Assembly (NCBI GenBank): GCA_018970245.1
Contig: JAGWWT010000001.1
Coordinates: 17,548-81,547, forward strand
Direction: 5' to 3'
Source of the DNA: Patescibacteria group bacterium
GTDB taxonomy: Bacteria; Patescibacteriota; Minisyncoccia; Phycocordibacterales; PALSA-1337
DNA length: 64,000 nucleotides
The notes beneath the pieces are model-generated. The model did no database searches. It was not told the DNA's origin and saw only the letters and a program-made list of their open reading frames with translations. Within the stretch, counting starts at the first letter, position 1. Each line of letters opens with the position of its first letter. Shown here in pieces: positions 6,040 through 58,935 of this stretch. Both the position numbers and the translations under genes were made by a program.

Positions 6040-6073
6040 CTTATCCACAAGAACGGCCCGGAGCAGTCTGCGG

Positions 6074-10113: not shown

Positions 10114-10353
10114 ATGAGAAAGACGCTTTTAAAAGACAAATCATTTCCCGTTCTCCTTGAAAAAGATGAGGATGGCGTATATATCGCAGAGTGCCCAGTT
10201 TTCAGCGGTTGCTATTCTCAAGGAAGATCGATCGATCAGGCATTGAAGAAGATCAGGGATGTCATTAGTCTTTGCCTTGAGGAGAAAGATAATCTTGAAC
10301 GTGCGAAAAACTATTCGCCGGCAGATATCAGGCTTTATACCGTTAGGATCTGA
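10114..10353 (+). CDS. hicB: HicB-family antitoxin (UPF0150)
   Basis: 79 aa. VLLEKDEDGVYIAECPVFSGCYSQGRSIDQALKKI matches the HicB RNase-H-like fold signature. Confidence 0.7.
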   Translation: MRKTLLKDKSFPVLLEKDEDGVYIAECPVFSGCYSQGRSIDQALKKIRDVISLCLEEKDNLERAKNYSPADIRLYTVRI

Positions 10354-10355
10354 AT

Positions 10356-10604
10356 ATGCCGAAGCTTCCAGTCTGACCGCATGGCAAAGTCATTCGTGCG
10401 CTCGAGAAGCTCGGCTATGAAGTCGTCCGCCAAAAGGGAAGCCATATCAGGATGCGGCATCCATATAAGACGCCTGTCACGATTCCGACGCATAATCCGG
10501 TGGCGAAGGGCACATTGAGGAAGATCTTGCGCGATGCTGAGATCTCCGTTCAAGCATTGATAGACTTGGCCAGGAGCGCCGCCGGCGTTCCCGAATCTCA
10601 TTGA
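10356..10604 (+). pseudogene. hicA: HicA mRNA-interferase toxin with an in-frame TGA at codon 7
   Basis: Frame 1 reads MPKLPV*PHGKVIRALEKLGYEVVRQKGSHIRMRHPYKTPVTIPTHNPVAKGTLRKILRDAEISVQAL... This is a textbook HicA (MPKLPVLSGREVI...GSH.R..H...) interrupted by TGA at 10374-10376. There is no frameshift and no alternative in-frame start downstream. Confidence 0.7.
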
Positions 10605-10678
10605 TCGAAACGTCGATCTGGTCCCTCGTGTGGTGTAATTTTTCCAGACAGCCGCTCAACTAAGCCGTTGATCATGTC
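10604..10678 (-). repeat. Copy C of a conserved ~85-nt intergenic element
   Basis: The reverse complement aligns almost base-for-base with 16205-16289 and 38673-38757 (CATTYGCATGAC..AACGGCYTRGTTGAGC..AAAAATTACAMCACACGAGSGACCAGATCGACGTTTCRAT). Confidence 0.8.
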
Positions 10679-10696
10679 ATGCGAATGCGTTTTCGT

Positions 10697-10728
10697 AAAT
10701 AAAAAATCCCGCAACAAAGGGCTGCGGG
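10697..10728 (-). terminator. Rho-independent terminator
   Basis: Minus strand: CCCGCAgccctttgtTGCGGG followed by ATTTTTTATTT. It lies after the 10761..11090 gene and immediately before element copy C. Confidence 0.6.
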
Positions 10729-10760: not shown

Positions 10761-11090
10761 TCACAACCAATCATCCAACTTCTCATTGATCCTGTCGTAC
10801 CAGTACCAGCTAGCATGTCTTACGATGTGCACAGACCAGGTGATCACAATTGGTGCAAATAAGACCGTGATGCTGCAGGCGATCCACGCCAATAGGCTCG
10901 ATGCCTGAAGTATATTCAAGAAGACCAGGGCATTCGCCACGGACGCTATGATAACAATGCATGCTGTTAGCATTATCACAGAGAGAGCCGTTATATTGTT
11001 CGCAAACTTTGCGACTGATTCATCGGCACGCTGGCTGATAGACTGGTTGATCTCTTGCAGATAGGCGATCAGGTTCATTGCAATCCTCAT
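10761..11090 (-). CDS. Hypothetical multi-TM membrane protein (low-GC segment)
   Basis: 109-aa ORF with three hydrophobic helices. The local GC is clearly lower than the surroundings. Confidence 0.45.
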   Translation of the reverse strand: MRIAMNLIAYLQEINQSISQRADESVAKFANNITALSVIMLTACIVIIASVANALVFLNILQASSLLAWIACSITVLFAPIVITWSVHIVRHASWYWYDRINEKLDDWL

Positions 11091-16031: not shown

Positions 16032-16204
16032 ATGATTCCTGACGAGGCACCTGAATTGGGAGTTACTAGAGTTATTAACAGAAATAATTTCCACTATTCT
16101 TCTTCCCCCTATTCTTGTCCCAGGTTCATTTCCCATACTTTTCCAACATTCTGGGGAAAACCGCTATATGTGTGTACATATTACCCTTTTTCATTCACGG
16201 AAAT

Positions 16205-16289
16205 CCATTTGCATGACAAAATCAACGGCTTGGTTGAGCCGTCCCGCAGAAAAATTACAACACACGAGGGACCAGATCGACGTTTCGAT
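16205..16289 (+). repeat. Copy A of the conserved ~85-nt intergenic element
   Basis: ccatttgcatgacaaaatcaacggcttggttgagccgtcccgcagaaaaattacaacacacgagggaccagatcgacgtttcgat, with a T-rich tract just upstream. Confidence 0.8.
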
Positions 16290-16328: not shown

Positions 16329-16441
16329 CTTGAAAACTCGGCGTTATAAAACTCGGCGTTATATTCCGCTCCGCTCCATGTAACGCCTTCGCTCGGACTG
16401 TGTGTAAGCTAGCTTCCACAAGTCCTCGCTCGGCGTTATAA
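16329..16441 (+). promoter_or_regulatory. Three direct repeats of CTCGGCGTTATA with a -10 TATAAT (16436-16441) immediately before a leaderless ATG (16449)
   Basis: ctcggcgttataaa / ctcggcgttatatt / ctcggcgttataat. TTCCAC-N17-TATAAT lies 7 nt before the start codon. Confidence 0.4.
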
Positions 16442-16448
16442 TACCTGC

Positions 16449-16964
16449 ATGTTTTCCGATCCAGCGTCGAACCTAGCCAAGCTGGTCCTATCTGAAGGCA
16501 TGAAAGTTGGGGACCTCGGCGCCGGTTCAGGCTTCTATTCGATCGAAGCGGCCAAGCGCGTCGGTTCCAGCGGCCGCGTCTATGCCATCGATGTCCAGAA
16601 AGACCTGCTGGAACGCGTCCGCAAAGCCGGCTTGGAGCAAGGCCTGCACAACATCGAAGTCATCTGGGGCAATGCCGAAAAGATCGGCGGCACGAAGCTC
16701 AAAGAGGCGCTATTGGACCGCGTCGTCCTTTCGAACGTCCTTTTTCAGGTAGCCAAACCCGACGATCTCGCCCTCGAGATAAAGCGCATCCTCAAGCCGG
16801 GCGGCAAGGTTCTCGTGGTAGATTGGAGCGGAGTGACGCCGCTCTCGCCGAAGAAGATATTCCCGGAGGCGCAAACCAGGACGCTTTTCGAGAAGAACGG
16901 CTTCAAACTCGATCAGTCGTTCGGCGCCGGCGAGCACCATTACGGGCTCGTGTTCATCCGATGA
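16449..16964 (+). CDS. Class I SAM-dependent methyltransferase
   Basis: 171 aa with the VGDLGAGSGFYS motif I and the downstream acidic motif II. Confidence 0.7.
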   Translation: MFSDPASNLAKLVLSEGMKVGDLGAGSGFYSIEAAKRVGSSGRVYAIDVQKDLLERVRKAGLEQGLHNIEVIWGNAEKIGGTKLKEALLDRVVLSNVLFQVAKPDDLALEIKRILKPGGKVLVVDWSGVTPLSPKKIFPEAQTRTLFEKNGFKLDQSFGAGEHHYGLVFIR

Positions 16965-37133: not shown

Positions 37134-38591
37134 ATGGCCTCGCTTGAAGAATTAAGGGCAACGCGCCAAAAGAAGCTGGATATCCTTAATAAAGCCGGCA
37201 TGGAGGCTTATCCCGTGTCCGTGCCAAAGGATCTGTCCCTGAAGGACGCGCGAGATAGGTTCAAAGAGCTGGAAGCCGGCAAAAAGGAGCTGTCTCTGGC
37301 AGGGAGGATCATGGCCATCCGCGGCCAAGGCGCCATCCAATTCTTCGTTCTTGACGATGGGACCGGCGCATTCCAGGCAGTCGTAAAGAAGGACGCGCTC
37401 AAGCCCGAGCTATTCGATCTGATCTCGGCCGCTGTCGACATCGGCGATATAATCAGCGTCACCGGCTCTCTTTTCGTCACCCAGCGCGGGGAACAGAGCC
37501 TCGAGGTCCATTCCTGGAAGATGGCATCCAAGTCGCTCGCGCCTCTTCCCGAGAAGTGGCACGGCCTTGCCGATCCAGACGAGAAGTTCCGGAAGCGCTA
37601 CCTGGATTTCATAATGGACCCTGAGACGCGAGAGGTGTTCTTCAAGAAAGCGAGATTCTGGCGTGCAGCCAGGGCGTTCATGGAAAAAGCGGGCTTTCTC
37701 GAAGTGGAGACGCCGACGCTCGAGACGACCACCGGGGGAGCGGAAGCCAATCCTTTCAGGACGCATCACGACGACTTCGACCTGGATGTATTCTTGCGCA
37801 TATCGGTCGGCGAGCTTTGGCAGAAGAGGCTTCTGGCTGCAGGATTCCCGAGGACATACGAGATCGGGCGGATCTACAGGAATGAAGGCACCAGCCCGGA
37901 GCATGCCCAGGAATTCACGAACATGGAATTCTACGCTTCGTATATGTCCTTCGACGAGGGGATCGCTTTCACTGAGAAGCTCATAAGGGAGATGTCCAAG
38001 GAAGCCTTCGGCACCTCGGCGTTCGAGATCAAAGGCAACAAGATCGATTTGGCCGGCGAATGGAAGCGGATCGACTATGTCGAGACGGTCGAGAAGATGA
38101 CCGGCATCGACGTCCTCAAGGCTTCAGAGAAGGAAATGGAGGCTAAGCTCAAAGAGCTGAAGGTCGAGTTCGAAGGCCAGAATCGCGAGAGGCTGGTGGA
38201 TACGCTCTGGAAATTTTGCCGCAAGCAGATCGTCGGGCCGGCGTGGCTCGTAGGCCATCCTAAGCTCGTGTCGCCCCTTTCCAAGGCCGACCCGAAGGAC
38301 CCCGATAAGACTCTGCGCGTTCAGCTCATACTCGGCGGCTCCGAGATGACCAACGGCTTCGCAGAGCTCAATGATCCGATCGATCAGCGCTCCAGATTCG
38401 AGGAGCAGAAGAAGCTCATCGCCTCGGGTGACAAGGAAGCGATGATGCCCGATCTAGAATTCGTGGAGATGCTCGAGCATGCCATGCCGCCAGCTTTCGG
38501 GTTCGGCGTTGGCGACAGGCTTTTTTCTACGTTGGCCGGCAAGCCGCTTCGCGAGACGCAGATGTTCCCGCTGATGAGGCCTAAGATGTAG
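37134..38591 (+). CDS. lysS: Lysyl-tRNA synthetase (class II)
   Basis: 485 aa. N-terminal OB anticodon-binding domain and class II motifs 1-3. Confidence 0.9.
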   Translation: MASLEELRATRQKKLDILNKAGMEAYPVSVPKDLSLKDARDRFKELEAGKKELSLAGRIMAIRGQGAIQFFVLDDGTGAFQAVVKKDALKPELFDLISAAVDIGDIISVTGSLFVTQRGEQSLEVHSWKMASKSLAPLPEKWHGLADPDEKFRKRYLDFIMDPETREVFFKKARFWRAARAFMEKAGFLEVETPTLETTTGGAEANPFRTHHDDFDLDVFLRISVGELWQKRLLAAGFPRTYEIGRIYRNEGTSPEHAQEFTNMEFYASYMSFDEGIAFTEKLIREMSKEAFGTSAFEIKGNKIDLAGEWKRIDYVETVEKMTGIDVLKASEKEMEAKLKELKVEFEGQNRERLVDTLWKFCRKQIVGPAWLVGHPKLVSPLSKADPKDPDKTLRVQLILGGSEMTNGFAELNDPIDQRSRFEEQKKLIASGDKEAMMPDLEFVEMLEHAMPPAFGFGVGDRLFSTLAGKPLRETQMFPLMRPKM

Positions 38592-38672
38592 TCAGAGATG
38601 GCAGGTTGACAGGCGCCGCGAGGCTTAGCGGATCACACGGTCCCTCGGCTCGGATTTTTTATTCACAGAAAC

Positions 38673-38757
38673 CCATTTGCATGACATTATTAACGGCCTA
38701 GTTGAGCTGCGCTGCAGAAAAATTACAACACACGAGCGACCAGATCGACGTTTCAAT
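38673..38757 (+). repeat. Copy B of the conserved ~85-nt intergenic element
   Basis: ccatttgcatgacattattaacggcctagttgagctgcgctgcagaaaaattacaacacacgagcgaccagatcgacgtttcaat, preceded by GGATTTTTTATTCAC after lysS. Confidence 0.8.
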
Positions 38758-38768
38758 AAGATCGATTC

Positions 38769-38895
38769 AAAGGACTCTCGATGTTTGATGGGACTCTCGA
38801 TTACTTAACATATTTTTGGTGGTGTGACCCATTATGTTGCGAGTCCATATCTTATGACCCGCCTTTTAAGAGCTATCCACAGCTTATCCACCGCT
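38769..38895 (+). promoter_or_regulatory. AT-rich mraZ upstream region with direct repeats (GGACTCTCGAT x2; TATCCAC-N5-TATCCAC)
   Basis: ggactctcgatgtttgatgggactctcgat and gctATCCACagcttATCCACcgc, 140-260 nt upstream of mraZ. Confidence 0.3.
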
Positions 38896-39032
38896 AAATA
38901 GCTTGTGTATTACCGGTGGAGTGGTTTAAAATACCCATCAAGTGGGAAGAAGTGGTAAAGCGTCGGTCTCCGAAAATTTTTTACAAAATTTCGCGCGCTA
39001 CGCCTGACCATCCTTCCCGCCGGCATATTTCT

Positions 39033-39473
39033 ATGCTCATCGGAGAACACCGCCATACTATCGATGACAAGAATCGCCTGTCGCTTCCCGCCAAGTTCCG
39101 AAAGGAAATGGGACGCGCAGTTGTGATCACGCCGGGACTCGACTCCTGTCTCTTCGTCTTTTCGGCGAAGGAATGGGAGAAGATCTCCGGACGCTTGTCA
39201 GCGGGAGATTCTTCGATACTGCAGGCGGACAACCGCGGCTTCAACCGCTTCCTCCTCGGAGGGGCCGTTGAAGCTCCGGTTGATGCAGTCGGCCGCATGC
39301 TTCTACCGGAACATCTGCGCGAGCACGCCAGGCTCAAGACGAATGTCGTCTTCCTAGGCGTCGTGGACCGCGCCGAGATCTGGGACGAAGAGACTTGGAG
39401 CGCCTATCGGAAGGGTGTGACGGACAACGCCAACGCCCTCGCCGAGAAGCTAGGCCAGGCGGGCGTGAAGTGA
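39033..39473 (+). CDS. mraZ: Division/cell-wall cluster transcriptional regulator MraZ
   Basis: Start MLIGEHRHTIDDKNRLSLPAKFR, with the duplicated MraZ fold motif (second half GAVEAPVDAVGRMLLPEHLRE). Confidence 0.8.
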   Translation: MLIGEHRHTIDDKNRLSLPAKFRKEMGRAVVITPGLDSCLFVFSAKEWEKISGRLSAGDSSILQADNRGFNRFLLGGAVEAPVDAVGRMLLPEHLREHARLKTNVVFLGVVDRAEIWDEETWSAYRKGVTDNANALAEKLGQAGVK

Positions 39474-42575: not shown

Positions 42576-42977
42576 ATGGGTCTACTAGACGCTCCAAGAA
42601 GCAAGATCAGATCATTCACAGACCTCAAATCCTGGAAGGAAGGCCATGGATTAGTAGTCTTGACCTATAGGATAACGGCAAAATTCCCGCGTTCTGAGCT
42701 TTATTCTCTCACTGATCAGATGCGTAGAGCTGCTTCTTCAGTAACCGCAAATATAGCGGAAGGGTTCGGGAGGCGAAGCTATAAAGAAAAGATCCAATTC
42801 TACTATCATTCACAGGGTTCTTTGACTGAATTGAAGGATCATATTTTGACAGCTAAGGATATCGGATATTTGAATGAGGATGATTTAAGATCCTTGGCAG
42901 AATCGGCCAATATGACTCACAGATTGCTTCAAGGACTCATAACGAAATCCAAGTCCTTCTTAAATCTTAAATCCTGA
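42576..42977 (+). CDS. Four-helix-bundle protein (23S rRNA-IVS protein family, TIGR02436; DGR Avd-like fold)
   Basis: 133 aa with the hallmark SVTANIAEGFGRRSYKEKIQFYYHSQGSLTELKDHILTAKDIGYL. Paralogous to 58549..58935. Inserted between ftsI and murF. Confidence 0.75.
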   Translation: MGLLDAPRSKIRSFTDLKSWKEGHGLVVLTYRITAKFPRSELYSLTDQMRRAASSVTANIAEGFGRRSYKEKIQFYYHSQGSLTELKDHILTAKDIGYLNEDDLRSLAESANMTHRLLQGLITKSKSFLNLKS

Positions 42978-55019: not shown

Positions 55020-55049
55020 TTGACAGGTGAACGCTCGTTCACCTATACT
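55020..55049 (+). promoter_or_regulatory. Promoter TTGACA-N18-TATACT with an embedded Cheo-type LexA box AGGTGAACGCTCGTTCACCT
   Basis: Perfect 9-2-9 palindrome containing GAAC-N4-GTTC, located between -35 and -10. The ATG at 55056 is 6 nt after the -10, which implies a leaderless transcript. Confidence 0.6.
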
Positions 55050-55055
55050 GTGTGC

Positions 55056-55259
55056 ATGAGCAAGCATCAAGCCATCAGGGCCATTCGTGTCGAGATCGAG
55101 AGGCTCAATCAGGAGATCGACCTCAAGATCATAAGAGGCGCTTCGTACAGGCGCGAAGCTCTCCGGCACAAGACCCTGATGGCGCAGCTCGCTCGTTTGT
55201 CGCCGCGCAGGAAGTATTTCGCCGGGTTCGGCAATTTCGTAAGGATGTTCCTATTTTGA
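55056..55259 (+). CDS. Small basic protein (67 aa) cotranscribed with lexA
   Basis: MSKHQAIRAIRVEIERLNQEIDLKIIRGASYRREALRHKTLMAQLARL, possibly DUF465/YdcH-like. Its stop lies 2 nt before the lexA start. Confidence 0.4.
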   Translation: MSKHQAIRAIRVEIERLNQEIDLKIIRGASYRREALRHKTLMAQLARLSPRRKYFAGFGNFVRMFLF

Positions 55260-55261
55260 AT

Positions 55262-55825
55262 ATGGATTCATACAAGAACAAGATCATATATTTCTACAGG
55301 CGCACGAAGCGCATGCCCAGCTATGCGGAGATAATGTCTCTGCTCGGCTTCAAGTCCAAGAATGCCGTCTACAAATTGGTGAACAAGCTCGTGAGCGAGG
55401 GTGCTTTGGATAAAGATTCGCAGGGACGGCTAGTACCGAACCGCCTTTTCGGAGAGGTGCCTGTCCTCGGATTGGTCGAGGCGGGATTTCCCACCGCTGC
55501 CGAGGAGGAGCTCGTAGATACTATGAGCCTCGACGAATATATGATCGAGAACAAAGAGGCCACCTATATGCTCGAGGTAAAGGGCGATTCTATGATCGAG
55601 GCCGGCATCCAGGAAGGCGACCTTGTCATCGCTGAAAGAGGCAAGGAGCCCAAGCCTGGCGATATCGTCATTGCCGAGGTCGACGGCGGATGGACGATGA
55701 AATATTTCCGTAAGACCGGCAACCAAGTGTGGCTGGAGCCTGCGAACAAGGCGTACAAGCCTATCTATCCCGAAGCCGATCTCAAGATCGCCGCCGTCGT
55801 GAAGGGGGTGATCAGGAAATATTAA
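55262..55825 (+). CDS. lexA: SOS repressor LexA
   Basis: 187 aa from MDSYKNKIIYFYRR: wHTH (YAEIMSLLGFKSKNAVYKLV), S24 peptidase with VKGDSMIEAGI (catalytic Ser) and the Lys dyad partner. Confidence 0.85.
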   Translation: MDSYKNKIIYFYRRTKRMPSYAEIMSLLGFKSKNAVYKLVNKLVSEGALDKDSQGRLVPNRLFGEVPVLGLVEAGFPTAAEEELVDTMSLDEYMIENKEATYMLEVKGDSMIEAGIQEGDLVIAERGKEPKPGDIVIAEVDGGWTMKYFRKTGNQVWLEPANKAYKPIYPEADLKIAAVVKGVIRKY

Positions 55826-55857: not shown

Positions 55858-56226
55858 ATGAAAATCAGAGGCGTTGACTATTTCTTCTATAACGTGAGCG
55901 ATATCAAGAAGTCTCTGGCGTTCTATCGCGACGTCATGGGATTGGAAGTGACCGATGAGCAGGAGAAGTGGGCGGAATTCGATTGTGGGAACCTGACTCT
56001 CGGCATAGGCGTATTCGGAGCCGATCCCAAGGCTGCAAAGAACGGCGCGGCTGTGGCTTTATCTGTCGATAATGTGGAAGATGCGGTGGCTGAATTGAAG
56101 GGTAAAAAAGTGAAGATCGTCACGGAACCTATGGATTTCCCGGATATGTGCGAGATGGCTATCATAGCCGATCCCGATGGCAACCAGATCATCCTCCATC
56201 ATCGGAAGGATGGAAGCGTTGGATGA
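55858..56226 (+). CDS. VOC-family (glyoxalase/bleomycin-resistance/dioxygenase) protein
   Basis: 122 aa; VDYFFYNVSDIKKSLAFYRDVMGLEV matches the VOC beta-alpha-beta-beta-beta module. Confidence 0.6.
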   Translation: MKIRGVDYFFYNVSDIKKSLAFYRDVMGLEVTDEQEKWAEFDCGNLTLGIGVFGADPKAAKNGAAVALSVDNVEDAVAELKGKKVKIVTEPMDFPDMCEMAIIADPDGNQIILHHRKDGSVG

Positions 56227-57527
56227 TCCTAACCCACAGATCGTTCCCGCGTGCGATACTCCACGTAGATGGCGACAGCTTTTTCGCCTCGTGCGAGGTC
56301 GCCAAGGATCCGAGCCTGAAGGGCAAATGCGTGGTCACTGGCAAGGAGCGTGGCATAGCGAGCTCCATGAGCTACGAAGCCAAAGCCCGTGGCGTTACGC
56401 GGGCGATGCGGCTGTCCGAGATCAAAAAGCTCATCCCAGACGTGATAATTTTGCCGTCGGACTATGAGACGTACAGCCTGTATTCGCAGCGCATGTATGA
56501 GATCGTACGGCGCTATACGGACGCTGTCGAGGAGTATTCGATCGACGAATGCTTCGCGGATCTCACGGGGATGCGCCGGCCCAACAACATGTCGTACGAG
56601 GCTATGGCCGAGAAGATAAAACGCGAATTGGACGGCGAGCTCGGCATGACGTTCTCGGTTGGTTTGGCTTTGAATAAAGTCACGGCCAAGGTGGCCAGCA
56701 AATGGCGGAAGCCGTCCGGATTGACGATCATTCCTGGCTACCATCTTCATCTTTATTTGGCAAAGACCCCGATAGAGAAGATCTGGGGCATCGGTCCGCA
56801 GACTTCTTCATATTTGATAAAGAAAGGCGTGAAGACCGCCTTGGATTTCGCCATGAAGGAAAAAGAATGGGTCAAAGCGCTTTTTTCCAAGCCGTTCCAG
56901 GAGATCCATTCGGAACTGAATGGCGATTTTGTGTATCCTTTGACCGTCGGTGAGAAGCACGACTACGCTTCCATATCTAAAACGCGGACATTCACGCCAC
57001 CCTCGAAGGACAGGGGATTCGTCTATTCGCAGCTATCCAAGAATATCGAGAATGCCTGCATAAAGCTGCGCCGGCACAACCTCTTCGCCAAGGCCTTCGC
57101 TTTCTATCTGAAGACACAGGACTTCAGGTACAGCGGATTGGACTTCAAACTGAGCCAAGCTGTCTCCGTGCCCCAGGAGATATTGAAGATAGTCAGCGAG
57201 CGATTCGACGATGTGTACAGACCAGGCTTCGAATACAGGGCTACCGGCGTGGTCCTCATGGAATTGAGCCATTCTGATGCCCGTACGCTCGACCTATTCG
57301 GCCGATCTGGCGCGATAGACAGGATAAAGCGCGTCTATGAGGGCGTAGATGCCGCCTGCGCCAAGTTCGGCAAGCATGCCGTATTCCTGGGGTCTTCATT
57401 CAGGGCCATGAATGAGCCTGCGCATAGGGGCGATAGGGCTGATTCGTCAGAAAGGCGCAAGAATCTCGTCAAAGGAGAGAACGAAAGGCAGAGAATAGGG
57501 TTGCCATTCCTGGGAGTTGTCAAATAG
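56223..57527 (+). CDS. dinB: DNA polymerase IV (Y-family, DinB)
   Basis: Start MILTHRSFPRAILHVDGDSFFAS (overlaps the VOC stop in ATGA). Y-family palm/fingers motifs and a little-finger domain. Confidence 0.85.
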   Translation: MILTHRSFPRAILHVDGDSFFASCEVAKDPSLKGKCVVTGKERGIASSMSYEAKARGVTRAMRLSEIKKLIPDVIILPSDYETYSLYSQRMYEIVRRYTDAVEEYSIDECFADLTGMRRPNNMSYEAMAEKIKRELDGELGMTFSVGLALNKVTAKVASKWRKPSGLTIIPGYHLHLYLAKTPIEKIWGIGPQTSSYLIKKGVKTALDFAMKEKEWVKALFSKPFQEIHSELNGDFVYPLTVGEKHDYASISKTRTFTPPSKDRGFVYSQLSKNIENACIKLRRHNLFAKAFAFYLKTQDFRYSGLDFKLSQAVSVPQEILKIVSERFDDVYRPGFEYRATGVVLMELSHSDARTLDLFGRSGAIDRIKRVYEGVDAACAKFGKHAVFLGSSFRAMNEPAHRGDRADSSERRKNLVKGENERQRIGLPFLGVVK

Positions 57528-58544: not shown

Positions 58545-58575
58545 GAGATTAGAGATTAGAGATTAGATTAGAGAG
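58545..58575. repeat. Heptamer tandem array (AGATTAG) overlapping the 4HB gene 3' end
   Basis: agagattagagattagagattagattagagag. Its reverse complement encodes the C-terminal ...LSNLISNL*. Confidence 0.85.
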
Positions 58576-58935
58576 GGAATTGGTTTTTGTGATCAGGCCC
58601 TGCAGCAGGCGATGGGCGCTGCTGATCCGATCACTGGCCTCATTGTAGTCTTTTTCTGAGATGTATGAAATATCCCTCGAAAGGATGAGCTGGTTCTCGA
58701 GCTCTGACATCGAGCCGCGAGCTTGGTAATAGAAATGCGCTTTGTCCTTGTATGTCCTGCGTCCGAAGCCCTCGGCGATATTGGACGTGATCGATACGGC
58801 TGACCTTCTCATCTGGCCTGCAAGGCCAAAGAGCTCTTCCTTCGGGAATTTCCTCGTCAAATCATACACGCCCATTACAAGGCGGTGTGAGACCTGCCAA
58901 GCCTGCAAATCTGTGAATTTGACGATGCCACCCAT
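58549..58935 (-). CDS. Four-helix-bundle protein (23S rRNA-IVS protein family, TIGR02436; Avd-like fold), paralog 2
   Basis: 128 aa: FTDLQAWQVSHRLVMGVYDLTRKFPKEE...RRSAVSITSNIAEGFGRRTYKDKAHFYYQARGSMSELENQLILSRDISYI. Confidence 0.8.
   Translation of the reverse strand: MGGIVKFTDLQAWQVSHRLVMGVYDLTRKFPKEELFGLAGQMRRSAVSITSNIAEGFGRRTYKDKAHFYYQARGSMSELENQLILSRDISYISEKDYNEASDRISSAHRLLQGLITKTNSLSNLISNL

Follow-up and report, generated by a model that had tools for sequence, protein, structure and literature searches.

Patescibacteria, or CPR bacteria, have small genomes with few repeats, and the control of transcription in these organisms is almost unstudied. The locus considered here belongs to a stretch of 64,000 nucleotides (referred to as the window, meaning the whole of the DNA that was analysed), which its LysS homologues place within Patescibacteria, close to Paceibacterota/Taylorbacteria. 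At the 3' end of the hicA gene lies a short sequence that recurs at two other intergenic places in the window, and an earlier note on this DNA had considered it as the possible source of a micro-protein family, as a structured sRNA or as a mobile MITE-like unit. What kind of element this repeat is, and what it might do at the places where it lies, are the questions that we address in this work by means of comparative genomics, structure prediction, database searches and an analysis of promoter motifs.

Copies, boundaries and distribution of the repeat

When the window was scanned with both halves of the consensus given in the earlier note, they were found at 3 places only, with 0 mismatches, while in dinucleotide shuffles no match to either half is expected, even with 3 mismatches allowed. 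An nhmmer profile constructed from the three copies returned the same three places (E ~1e-37) and no further copy elsewhere within the 64 kb, and the three-copy repeat was thereby confirmed. Alignment of the copies with their flanks revealed three oriented intergenic units of 103 nt each, displaying a pairwise identity of 83-86% and sharply bounded by a T-tract followed by ATTYAC at the start and by TTTCRAT at the end; the flanks of the three copies are unrelated to one another. Thus, a conserved unit does exist, but the ~85 nt originally attributed to it fall short of its true length, since conservation extends ~20-25 nt further on the 5' side.

Copy A (16187-16289, plus strand) is located in the spacer that separates a 359-aa gene (minus strand) from a divergent operon encoding a methyltransferase, a solute-binding protein (SBP) and a pilin (plus strand, ATG at 16449). 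Copy B (38655-38757, plus strand) is placed after the lysS stop (38591) and before the mraZ regulatory region, being directed towards mraZ (ATG at 39033). Copy C (10604-10706, minus strand) lies between the terminator of a 109-aa gene (10761-11090, minus strand) and the stop of hicA, a plus-strand gene, so that it is oriented antisense into hicA/hicB. A fourth variant, copy D, was found after lysS in the sister assembly GCA_028866085.1, 110 nt further downstream than copy B, with an identity of 91% to copy A and of 75-82% to copies B and C.

The copies do not vary evenly along their length. A hypervariable block of 9 nt reads CGTCCCGCA in copy A (16240-16248, plus strand), TGCGCTGCA in copy B (38708-38716, plus strand), GGCTGTCTG in copy C (10653-10645, minus strand) and CATGCGGCA in copy D, and it is followed by a nearly invariant core of 41 nt, GAAAAATTACAACACACGAGGGACCAGATCGACGTTTCGAT, which occupies 16249-16289 (plus) in A, 38717-38757 (plus) in B and 10644-10604 (minus) in C. 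Across the only four distinct copies on which these counts are based (A-D), variable columns amount to 3/41 in the core, 8/9 in the 9-nt block and 20/62 in the upstream part, the difference between core and upstream part being significant (Fisher p=0.003). Such uneven conservation argues against a uniform neutral decay. Furthermore, the core is ~97% conserved while the whole copies have diverged from each other by 14-25%, and since copies this far apart are identical between strains differing by 0.1-0.8%, they are old relative to the divergence of the strains. Old copies with a near-invariant core require either selection or gene conversion, and the latter could be the cause of the conservation observed.

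Regarding its distribution among close strains, copies A and C are base-for-base the same in two conspecific sister assemblies, and copy A is identical in the sister assemblies L007 and L008; identity to the window is ~99.9% for GCA_028865675.1 and ~99.2-99.8% for GCA_028866085.1 (L022). Conversely, the lysS-mraZ spacer is polymorphic, as the window, L003/L022 and L016 all differ at this place. The divergence between the window and the sister strain L003 begins exactly at the opening T-tract of copy B (38659), and in the mraZ contig of GCA_028866085.1 a strain-specific gene with a PG_binding_1 domain is located between the element and mraZ; the contig L022 starts within this gene, and L003 terminates in copy D. 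Four contigs, from different assemblies, have one of their ends within the element (L003 and the Logan contigs L002, L015 and L017), which is the usual behaviour of assemblers at repeats. In comparisons among strains, the element has the character of a discrete unit.

Beyond these strains, the relatives L005, L009 and L010, with 77-80% LysS identity, carry no element within ~10 kb either side of lysS. The sequence that flanks the window on its two sides (~18 kb, taken from sister assemblies) contains no additional copy, which results in a density of 3 copies in about 82 kb examined. No true copy was retrieved by an exact-pattern scan of GTDB representative genomes, whose lone match (L001, 4359-4381) was rejected as a chance occurrence, being inside a protein-coding gene (motif HTSDQIDV) with dissimilar flanks. 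Pattern scans yielded nothing for either core half in JGI metagenomes, and three matches to the core in IMG/VR that were likewise discarded as coding-sequence chance matches to the same peptide motif; blastn searches of phage and plasmid collections yielded nothing meaningful. All the chance matches to the core pattern (L001, L011, L012 and L013) encode the peptide motif [HY]TSDQI and are unrelated to the element, and this common coding motif accounts for the recurrence of a 17-22-nt core pattern in unrelated contigs. Since the element was not found in the relatives nor in the GTDB, JGI, IMG/VR, phage and plasmid sets searched, it is a low-copy repeat confined to one species-level lineage of Patescibacteria. 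A search of the literature on CPR repeats or sRNAs yielded nothing but the TIGR-Tas tandem arrays, whose nature is different.

Several neighbouring loci also vary among strains or deserve description. The lysS-mraZ spacer (38591-39033) constitutes a rearrangement hot spot: the allele of the window is made of copy B and ~105 nt of unique sequence, that of GCA_028866085.1 comprises 110 nt, copy D and the PG_binding_1 gene, that of L016 is divergent and recombines at the mraZ -10, and in the relative L010 an IS200/IS605 Y1 transposase is present. A 38-codon ORF (38781-38897, plus strand; MFDGTLDYLTYFWWCDPLCC...), which begins 24 nt after copy B with the Shine-Dalgarno sequence AAGGA placed 6 nt before its ATG and has no Pfam match, might be what is left of the 5' end of a gene since deleted. 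Beside copy C, the hicA gene (10356-10604, plus strand; HicA_toxin, E=7e-20) displays an in-frame TGA at codon 7 (10374-10376) and no in-frame start before 10452, and the neighbouring hicB (10114-10353) is intact; judging from its sequence, hicA looks like a nonsense-inactivated toxin gene. This region is ~99.9% identical over 13.65 kb in L007, where hicB is called and no gene is called at the hicA position. Elsewhere in the window, two genes encode 23S_rRNA_IVP / bAvd-like four-helix-bundle proteins (42576-42977, plus strand, and 58549-58935, minus strand); the first, between ftsI and murE, is missing in GCA_028866085.1 owing to a 451-nt deletion, and the second varies by strain (103 aa in L018 versus 128 aa), a behaviour like that of small selfish insertions.

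The promoter-like 5' half and its surroundings

The first 36 nt of the element are composed of a T-tract, TTYACR, 17 nt, TGn and CANNAT, an architecture absent from the earlier note. In all copies, TTYACR-17-TGnCANNAT displays the hexamers, spacing, A2/T6 positions and TG of a sigma-70-type promoter. The predicted promoter of copy A (16194-16222, plus strand) consists of a -35 TTCACG, a 17-nt spacer, TG at 16214-16215 and a -10 CAAAAT; those of copy B (38662-38690, plus strand) and copy C (10671-10699, minus strand) share the 17-nt spacer and the TGn, with TTCACA and CATTAT in the former, and TTTACG and CATGAT in the latter. The promoter scan itself calls a promoter in copy B, while the scan used for motif counts covers A, B and C. 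From these positions, transcription would be expected to start at ~16227-16229 (plus) in copy A, ~38695-38697 (plus) in copy B and ~10666-10664 (minus) in copy C. Among the four copies, only positions 3 and 4 of the -10 hexamer vary (AA, TT, TG and AT), these being the weakly constrained ones, and the TG, A2 and T6 are invariant; the match to the promoter consensus is moderate (7-9/12), with C in place of T at -12. A promoter or terminator on the reverse strand of the element was considered and rejected, as the T-run after the reverse-strand hairpin is unconserved among copies.

The frequency of this motif was assessed by counting the sites in which both hexamers match at no fewer than 4/6 positions (at least 8/12 in total), the -10 has A2 and T6, the spacing is 16-18 nt and the TG extension is present. 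Nineteen such sites were found in 128 kb of strand, a density of ~0.015 per 100 nt per strand, whereas shuffles contained ~9; a chance occurrence is thus expected in ~1-2% of 100-nt stretches. Copies A, B and C of the element account for three of these sites, all on the element's own strand, and copy D retains the motif; as the copies are homologous, they count effectively as one observation. From the other 16 sites, 8 are located 8-99 nt upstream of a same-strand annotated gene or tRNA and a ninth precedes a small gene that lacks an annotation and possesses a Shine-Dalgarno sequence, whereas ~4.5% would be placed upstream of a gene by chance. This placement of 9/16 sites outside the element indicates, at the sequence level, that TG-extended promoters are the working promoter type of this organism.

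As for the genes around the element, three of the four copies (A, B and D) face a co-oriented gene or operon, and copy C faces none; the downstream genes of the copies are unrelated to each other. Each copy had been described as following a terminator or T-tract, and a T-tract is indeed present in all of them, but a hairpin terminator only precedes copy C, namely the intrinsic terminator of the 109-aa gene (10708-10728, minus strand), whose T-run merges with the T-tract that opens the copy. On the other side, a terminator scan revealed no same-strand terminator in the several hundred nt that follow each copy; transcripts would therefore read through into the neighbouring DNA. The methyltransferase gene downstream of copy A possesses its own proximal TATAAT, and mraZ possesses its own closer promoter with conserved GTGG boxes. 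Given this mraZ promoter, and given that the 130 nt preceding the mraZ DnaA boxes in the L016 allele contain no element, copy B appears to be dispensable for dcw expression.

Other regulatory sequences were recorded in the window. Three AGTGG(G/T) boxes (38920-38965), which surround the TAAAAT -10 of mraZ and are conserved in L005, L010, L016 and L022, are probably MraZ autoregulatory sites, and a tandem pair of DnaA-like boxes upstream of mraZ is conserved in the same four relatives. Sites resembling the DnaA box TTATCCACA with at most 1 mismatch number 22 in the window against 7.6 expected (0/100 shuffles reach 22), including those at 6041, 29106 (minus strand), 38873-38892, 51398 and 55002, the perfect boxes being located where genes end. 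A -10 element lies ~30 nt downstream of each of three of them (6041, 51398 and 55002). Together with the conserved tandem pair at mraZ, these sites suggest that DnaA, or another factor reading the box, commonly acts as a regulator close to promoters in this lineage. The stretch from copy A to the methyltransferase gene contains three direct copies of CTCGGCGTTATAA/T (16337-16349, 16352-16364 and 16429-16442) and one inverted GGCGTTA, which possibly constitute an operator array; the last direct repeat provides the TATAAT, which ends 7 nt before the ATG at 16449 and predicts a leaderless mRNA. An unannotated gene of ~56 codons (53100-52860, minus strand; MMRRRRARLAFDIMRQ...) displays an 11/12 TG-extended promoter (53100-53072), the Shine-Dalgarno sequence AAAGGAG and a downstream hairpin, GCGCACTGG...CCGGTGCGC, that may be a terminator. 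At 55020-55049, a Gram-positive-type LexA box, GAACgctcGTTC (55029-55040), is included in a TTGACA-18-TATACT promoter preceding a LexA-like gene (Peptidase_S24, 55052-55825; annotated as two ORFs of 67 and 187 aa in the sister assembly L018), and a Y-family polymerase gene is found further downstream (IMS, 56148-57527).

Coding, RNA, mobile and DNA-site readings

Some of the observations that led the earlier note to propose a micro-protein family of 25-46 aa, with the frame H(L/S)HD.INGLVE....KIT.HE.PDRRF., were reproduced: the frame is open in all copies, two of its codons differ synonymously (Ile ATC/ATT and Leu TTG/CTA/TTA), potential starts are present (a TTG for A and B; for C, an ATG situated two codons further on), and the stop of the frame in copy C overlaps that of hicA (TCATTGA, 10598-10604). 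However, all copies also have an equally open frame on the opposite strand, so that ~28 open codons in near-identical sequences carry no weight. The start position is itself unconserved, as the TTG of A and B corresponds to TCG in C and to TTC in D, the latter without a replacement start, and no Shine-Dalgarno sequence precedes it. Outside the variable block, 3 synonymous substitutions stand against 8 non-synonymous ones, about the neutral proportion; the 9-nt block replaces 3-4 residues of the peptide in every copy, the C-termini extend 0, 17 or 18 residues past the conserved part, and a six-frame query against 5.8 billion predicted proteins retrieved no match, even at E<=10. If the promoter were correctly recognized, the proposed start codon would moreover fall within the promoter spacer and not be transcribed from that promoter. 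Taken together, these results make a coding function extremely improbable. Almost no credence can be given either to a structured cis-regulatory RNA, i.e., a riboswitch-like or attenuator-like leader, in spite of the location of A and B upstream of operons and of the existence of small local hairpins; one of these, ATCGAcgttTCGAT, is found as previously described in A and C, and is mismatched in B (TCAAT). The element and its 131-nt putative transcripts, folded on both strands, gave z-scores from -0.37 to +0.99 relative to shuffles, and the RNAalifold consensus reached -7 and -11 kcal/mol with a covariation term that acted as a penalty, no compensatory changes being observed. Rfam 15 covariance models gave no match over the element at the gathering score or at E<=10, only sub-threshold chance matches, and three tRNAs in the whole window. 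A common leader would also have to serve unrelated downstream genes, and in copy C no gene at all. The structured sRNA of the earlier note likewise finds no support in these folding, covariation and Rfam results. An sRNA without such structure is a distinct proposal, and sRNA families that exist in several copies and conserve their promoter and seed are well documented. A stand-alone trans-acting family of this kind, with its own promoter, the single-stranded 41-nt core as seed, and 3' ends produced by processing or by flank-specific signals, would agree with the promoter motif and with a nearly invariant core whose A/C-rich part is predicted to be single-stranded in all copies. We nevertheless consider it unlikely, given that no same-strand intrinsic terminator follows any copy, no 3' end structure is conserved, antisense targets of the core within the 64 kb occur at chance level, and no Rfam relative was detected. 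Pairing of the variable block with the downstream flank was observed in copy A (p ~0.03), and none in copies B and C.

The proposal of a mobile MITE-like unit holds in part, as the four distinct copies are dispersed, display presence/absence polymorphism among strains and break assemblies, but the structural hallmarks of such a unit were not found. A repeat search (seed 6) detected no inverted pair common to the copies, with a 5-nt GAAAC/GTTTC match between the element ends as the only one seen by eye; the flanks of A-D, when read, showed no direct repeat at both ends of any copy; and no transposase was present among the ~50 window proteins scanned against Pfam. As regards an IS200/IS605-derived PATE, the hairpins observed amount to a single weak one of 5 bp near the 3' end, broken in B, and no Y1 transposase lies within the window. 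The copies could still be inert remnants of a non-autonomous mobile element, or a repeat spread by recombination, in which the promoter motif is incidental and the core has remained conserved via recent spread or gene conversion. The restriction to one species-level lineage, the strain polymorphism of the lysS-mraZ spacer, the assemblies that break within the element, the lack of a gene faced by copy C, and the IS200/IS605 Y1 transposase in the same spacer of L010 are all in favour of such an origin. Conversely, the missing inverted repeats, target-site duplications, conserved hairpins and transposase, the age of the copies combined with a ~97% conserved core, and a promoter motif that is rare by chance make it somewhat unlikely. 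Two related candidates were discarded. A composite transposon with copies C and A as its inverted ends disagrees with the presence of gyrA in the intervening segment and with the synteny of that segment in sister strains. A group IIC intron or other terminator-targeting element disagrees with the absence of intron termini and with a conserved length of only 103 nt. A protein-binding module acting at the DNA level without being transcribed, such as an operator, a DnaA-box-like site or a recombination site, seems to us very unlikely. The palindrome ATCGA-N4-TCGAT of A and C, the DnaA-box-like TTATTCACA with which copy B starts in a window enriched in such sequences, and the coincidence of the element with a recombination breakpoint between strains are consistent with it; however, copy B breaks the palindrome by a mismatch, copies A, C and D depart from the DnaA-like box at 2-3 positions, no dyad symmetry surrounds the variable block, and the near-invariance of 41 nt far exceeds the length of a typical operator.

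A proposed promoter-plus-leader module and its relation to known systems

The reading that we favour, with a probability of about 45%, is that the element is a dispersed, portable promoter-plus-leader module, that is, a non-coding and oriented intergenic repeat. Its T-tract would be followed by a TG-extended promoter of the sigma-70 type, a start ~7 nt after the -10, and a transcribed segment composed of a short semi-conserved stretch, the 9-nt hypervariable block and the unstructured, A/C-rich 41-nt core. From the promoter motif and its position we infer that the element is transcribed from the start points given above, and likewise that the conserved core works as RNA, either as a shared leader or as a single-stranded seed, rather than as a DNA site. 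The module would start transcripts into whatever adjoins it downstream: copy A into the methyltransferase, solute-binding protein and pilin operon, copy B into the mraZ-dcw cluster, to which it would add a promoter upstream of the conserved one that mraZ already has, copy D of the sister strain probably towards the strain-specific PG_binding_1 gene, and copy C antisense across the hicBA toxin-antitoxin pair.

A more specific version, which we hold to be decidedly unlikely, extends the promoter-plus-leader module to a functional, lineage-specific RNA family with a common single-stranded 41-nt core and a 9-nt specificity block that differs between members. Operons related to the cell envelope and division (pilin, dcw and PG-binding) would then be co-regulated via a common RNA-binding factor, or the RNAs would act in trans. 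If true, this would be, to our knowledge, the first regulatory RNA family described for CPR bacteria.

The element is a new lineage-specific example of the short dispersed intergenic repeats with promoter potential, belonging to no named family, and in this sense a modest, lineage-restricted curiosity. Should the promoter-plus-leader module be real, a strain-variable repeat that places a promoter and a fixed leader by division, pilin and cell-wall genes would represent a way in which regulation is rewired in reduced genomes, and the element offers a concrete sequence for the few genetically tractable CPR systems. Were it merely a decaying repeat, its main practical effect would be the fragmentation of assemblies in this lineage.

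Known systems resemble the element in different respects. Correia elements (CREE) of Neisseria possess 26-bp terminal inverted repeats, duplicate a TA target and reach hundreds of copies; like them, the element is a dispersed, intergenic, non-coding and strain-variable sequence in the size range of ~100-150 bp with outward promoters (predicted, in our case), but it has few copies, no inverted termini, no duplication and no sequence similarity to them. REP/BIME, ERIC, BOX and RUP are also short repeated intergenic sequences, confined to lineages and disruptive for assemblies, although these form a stable palindrome or stem-loop, whereas the element folds no better than shuffled sequences. With Qrr1-5, the streptococcal csRNAs and PrrF1/2 it shares paralogous intergenic copies, a conserved promoter region and a conserved single-stranded segment; these families have intrinsic terminators and conserved hairpins, while the element has neither, nor any similarity in Rfam. 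Outward promoters at IS ends and PATE-like derivatives of IS200/IS605 offer a further parallel, in which a promoter is carried to host genes by mobile DNA, and an IS200/IS605 transposase occupies the same lysS-mraZ spacer in a relative; the element differs from them in that it is accompanied by no transposase in the window, lacks subterminal guide hairpins and bears no resemblance to the L010 insertion. Without inverted termini or target duplication, and with no transposase in the window, it does not fit the Correia and IS-end families; by analogy of function, it would most resemble promoter-bearing small repeats such as the Correia elements, or the outward promoters of IS ends.
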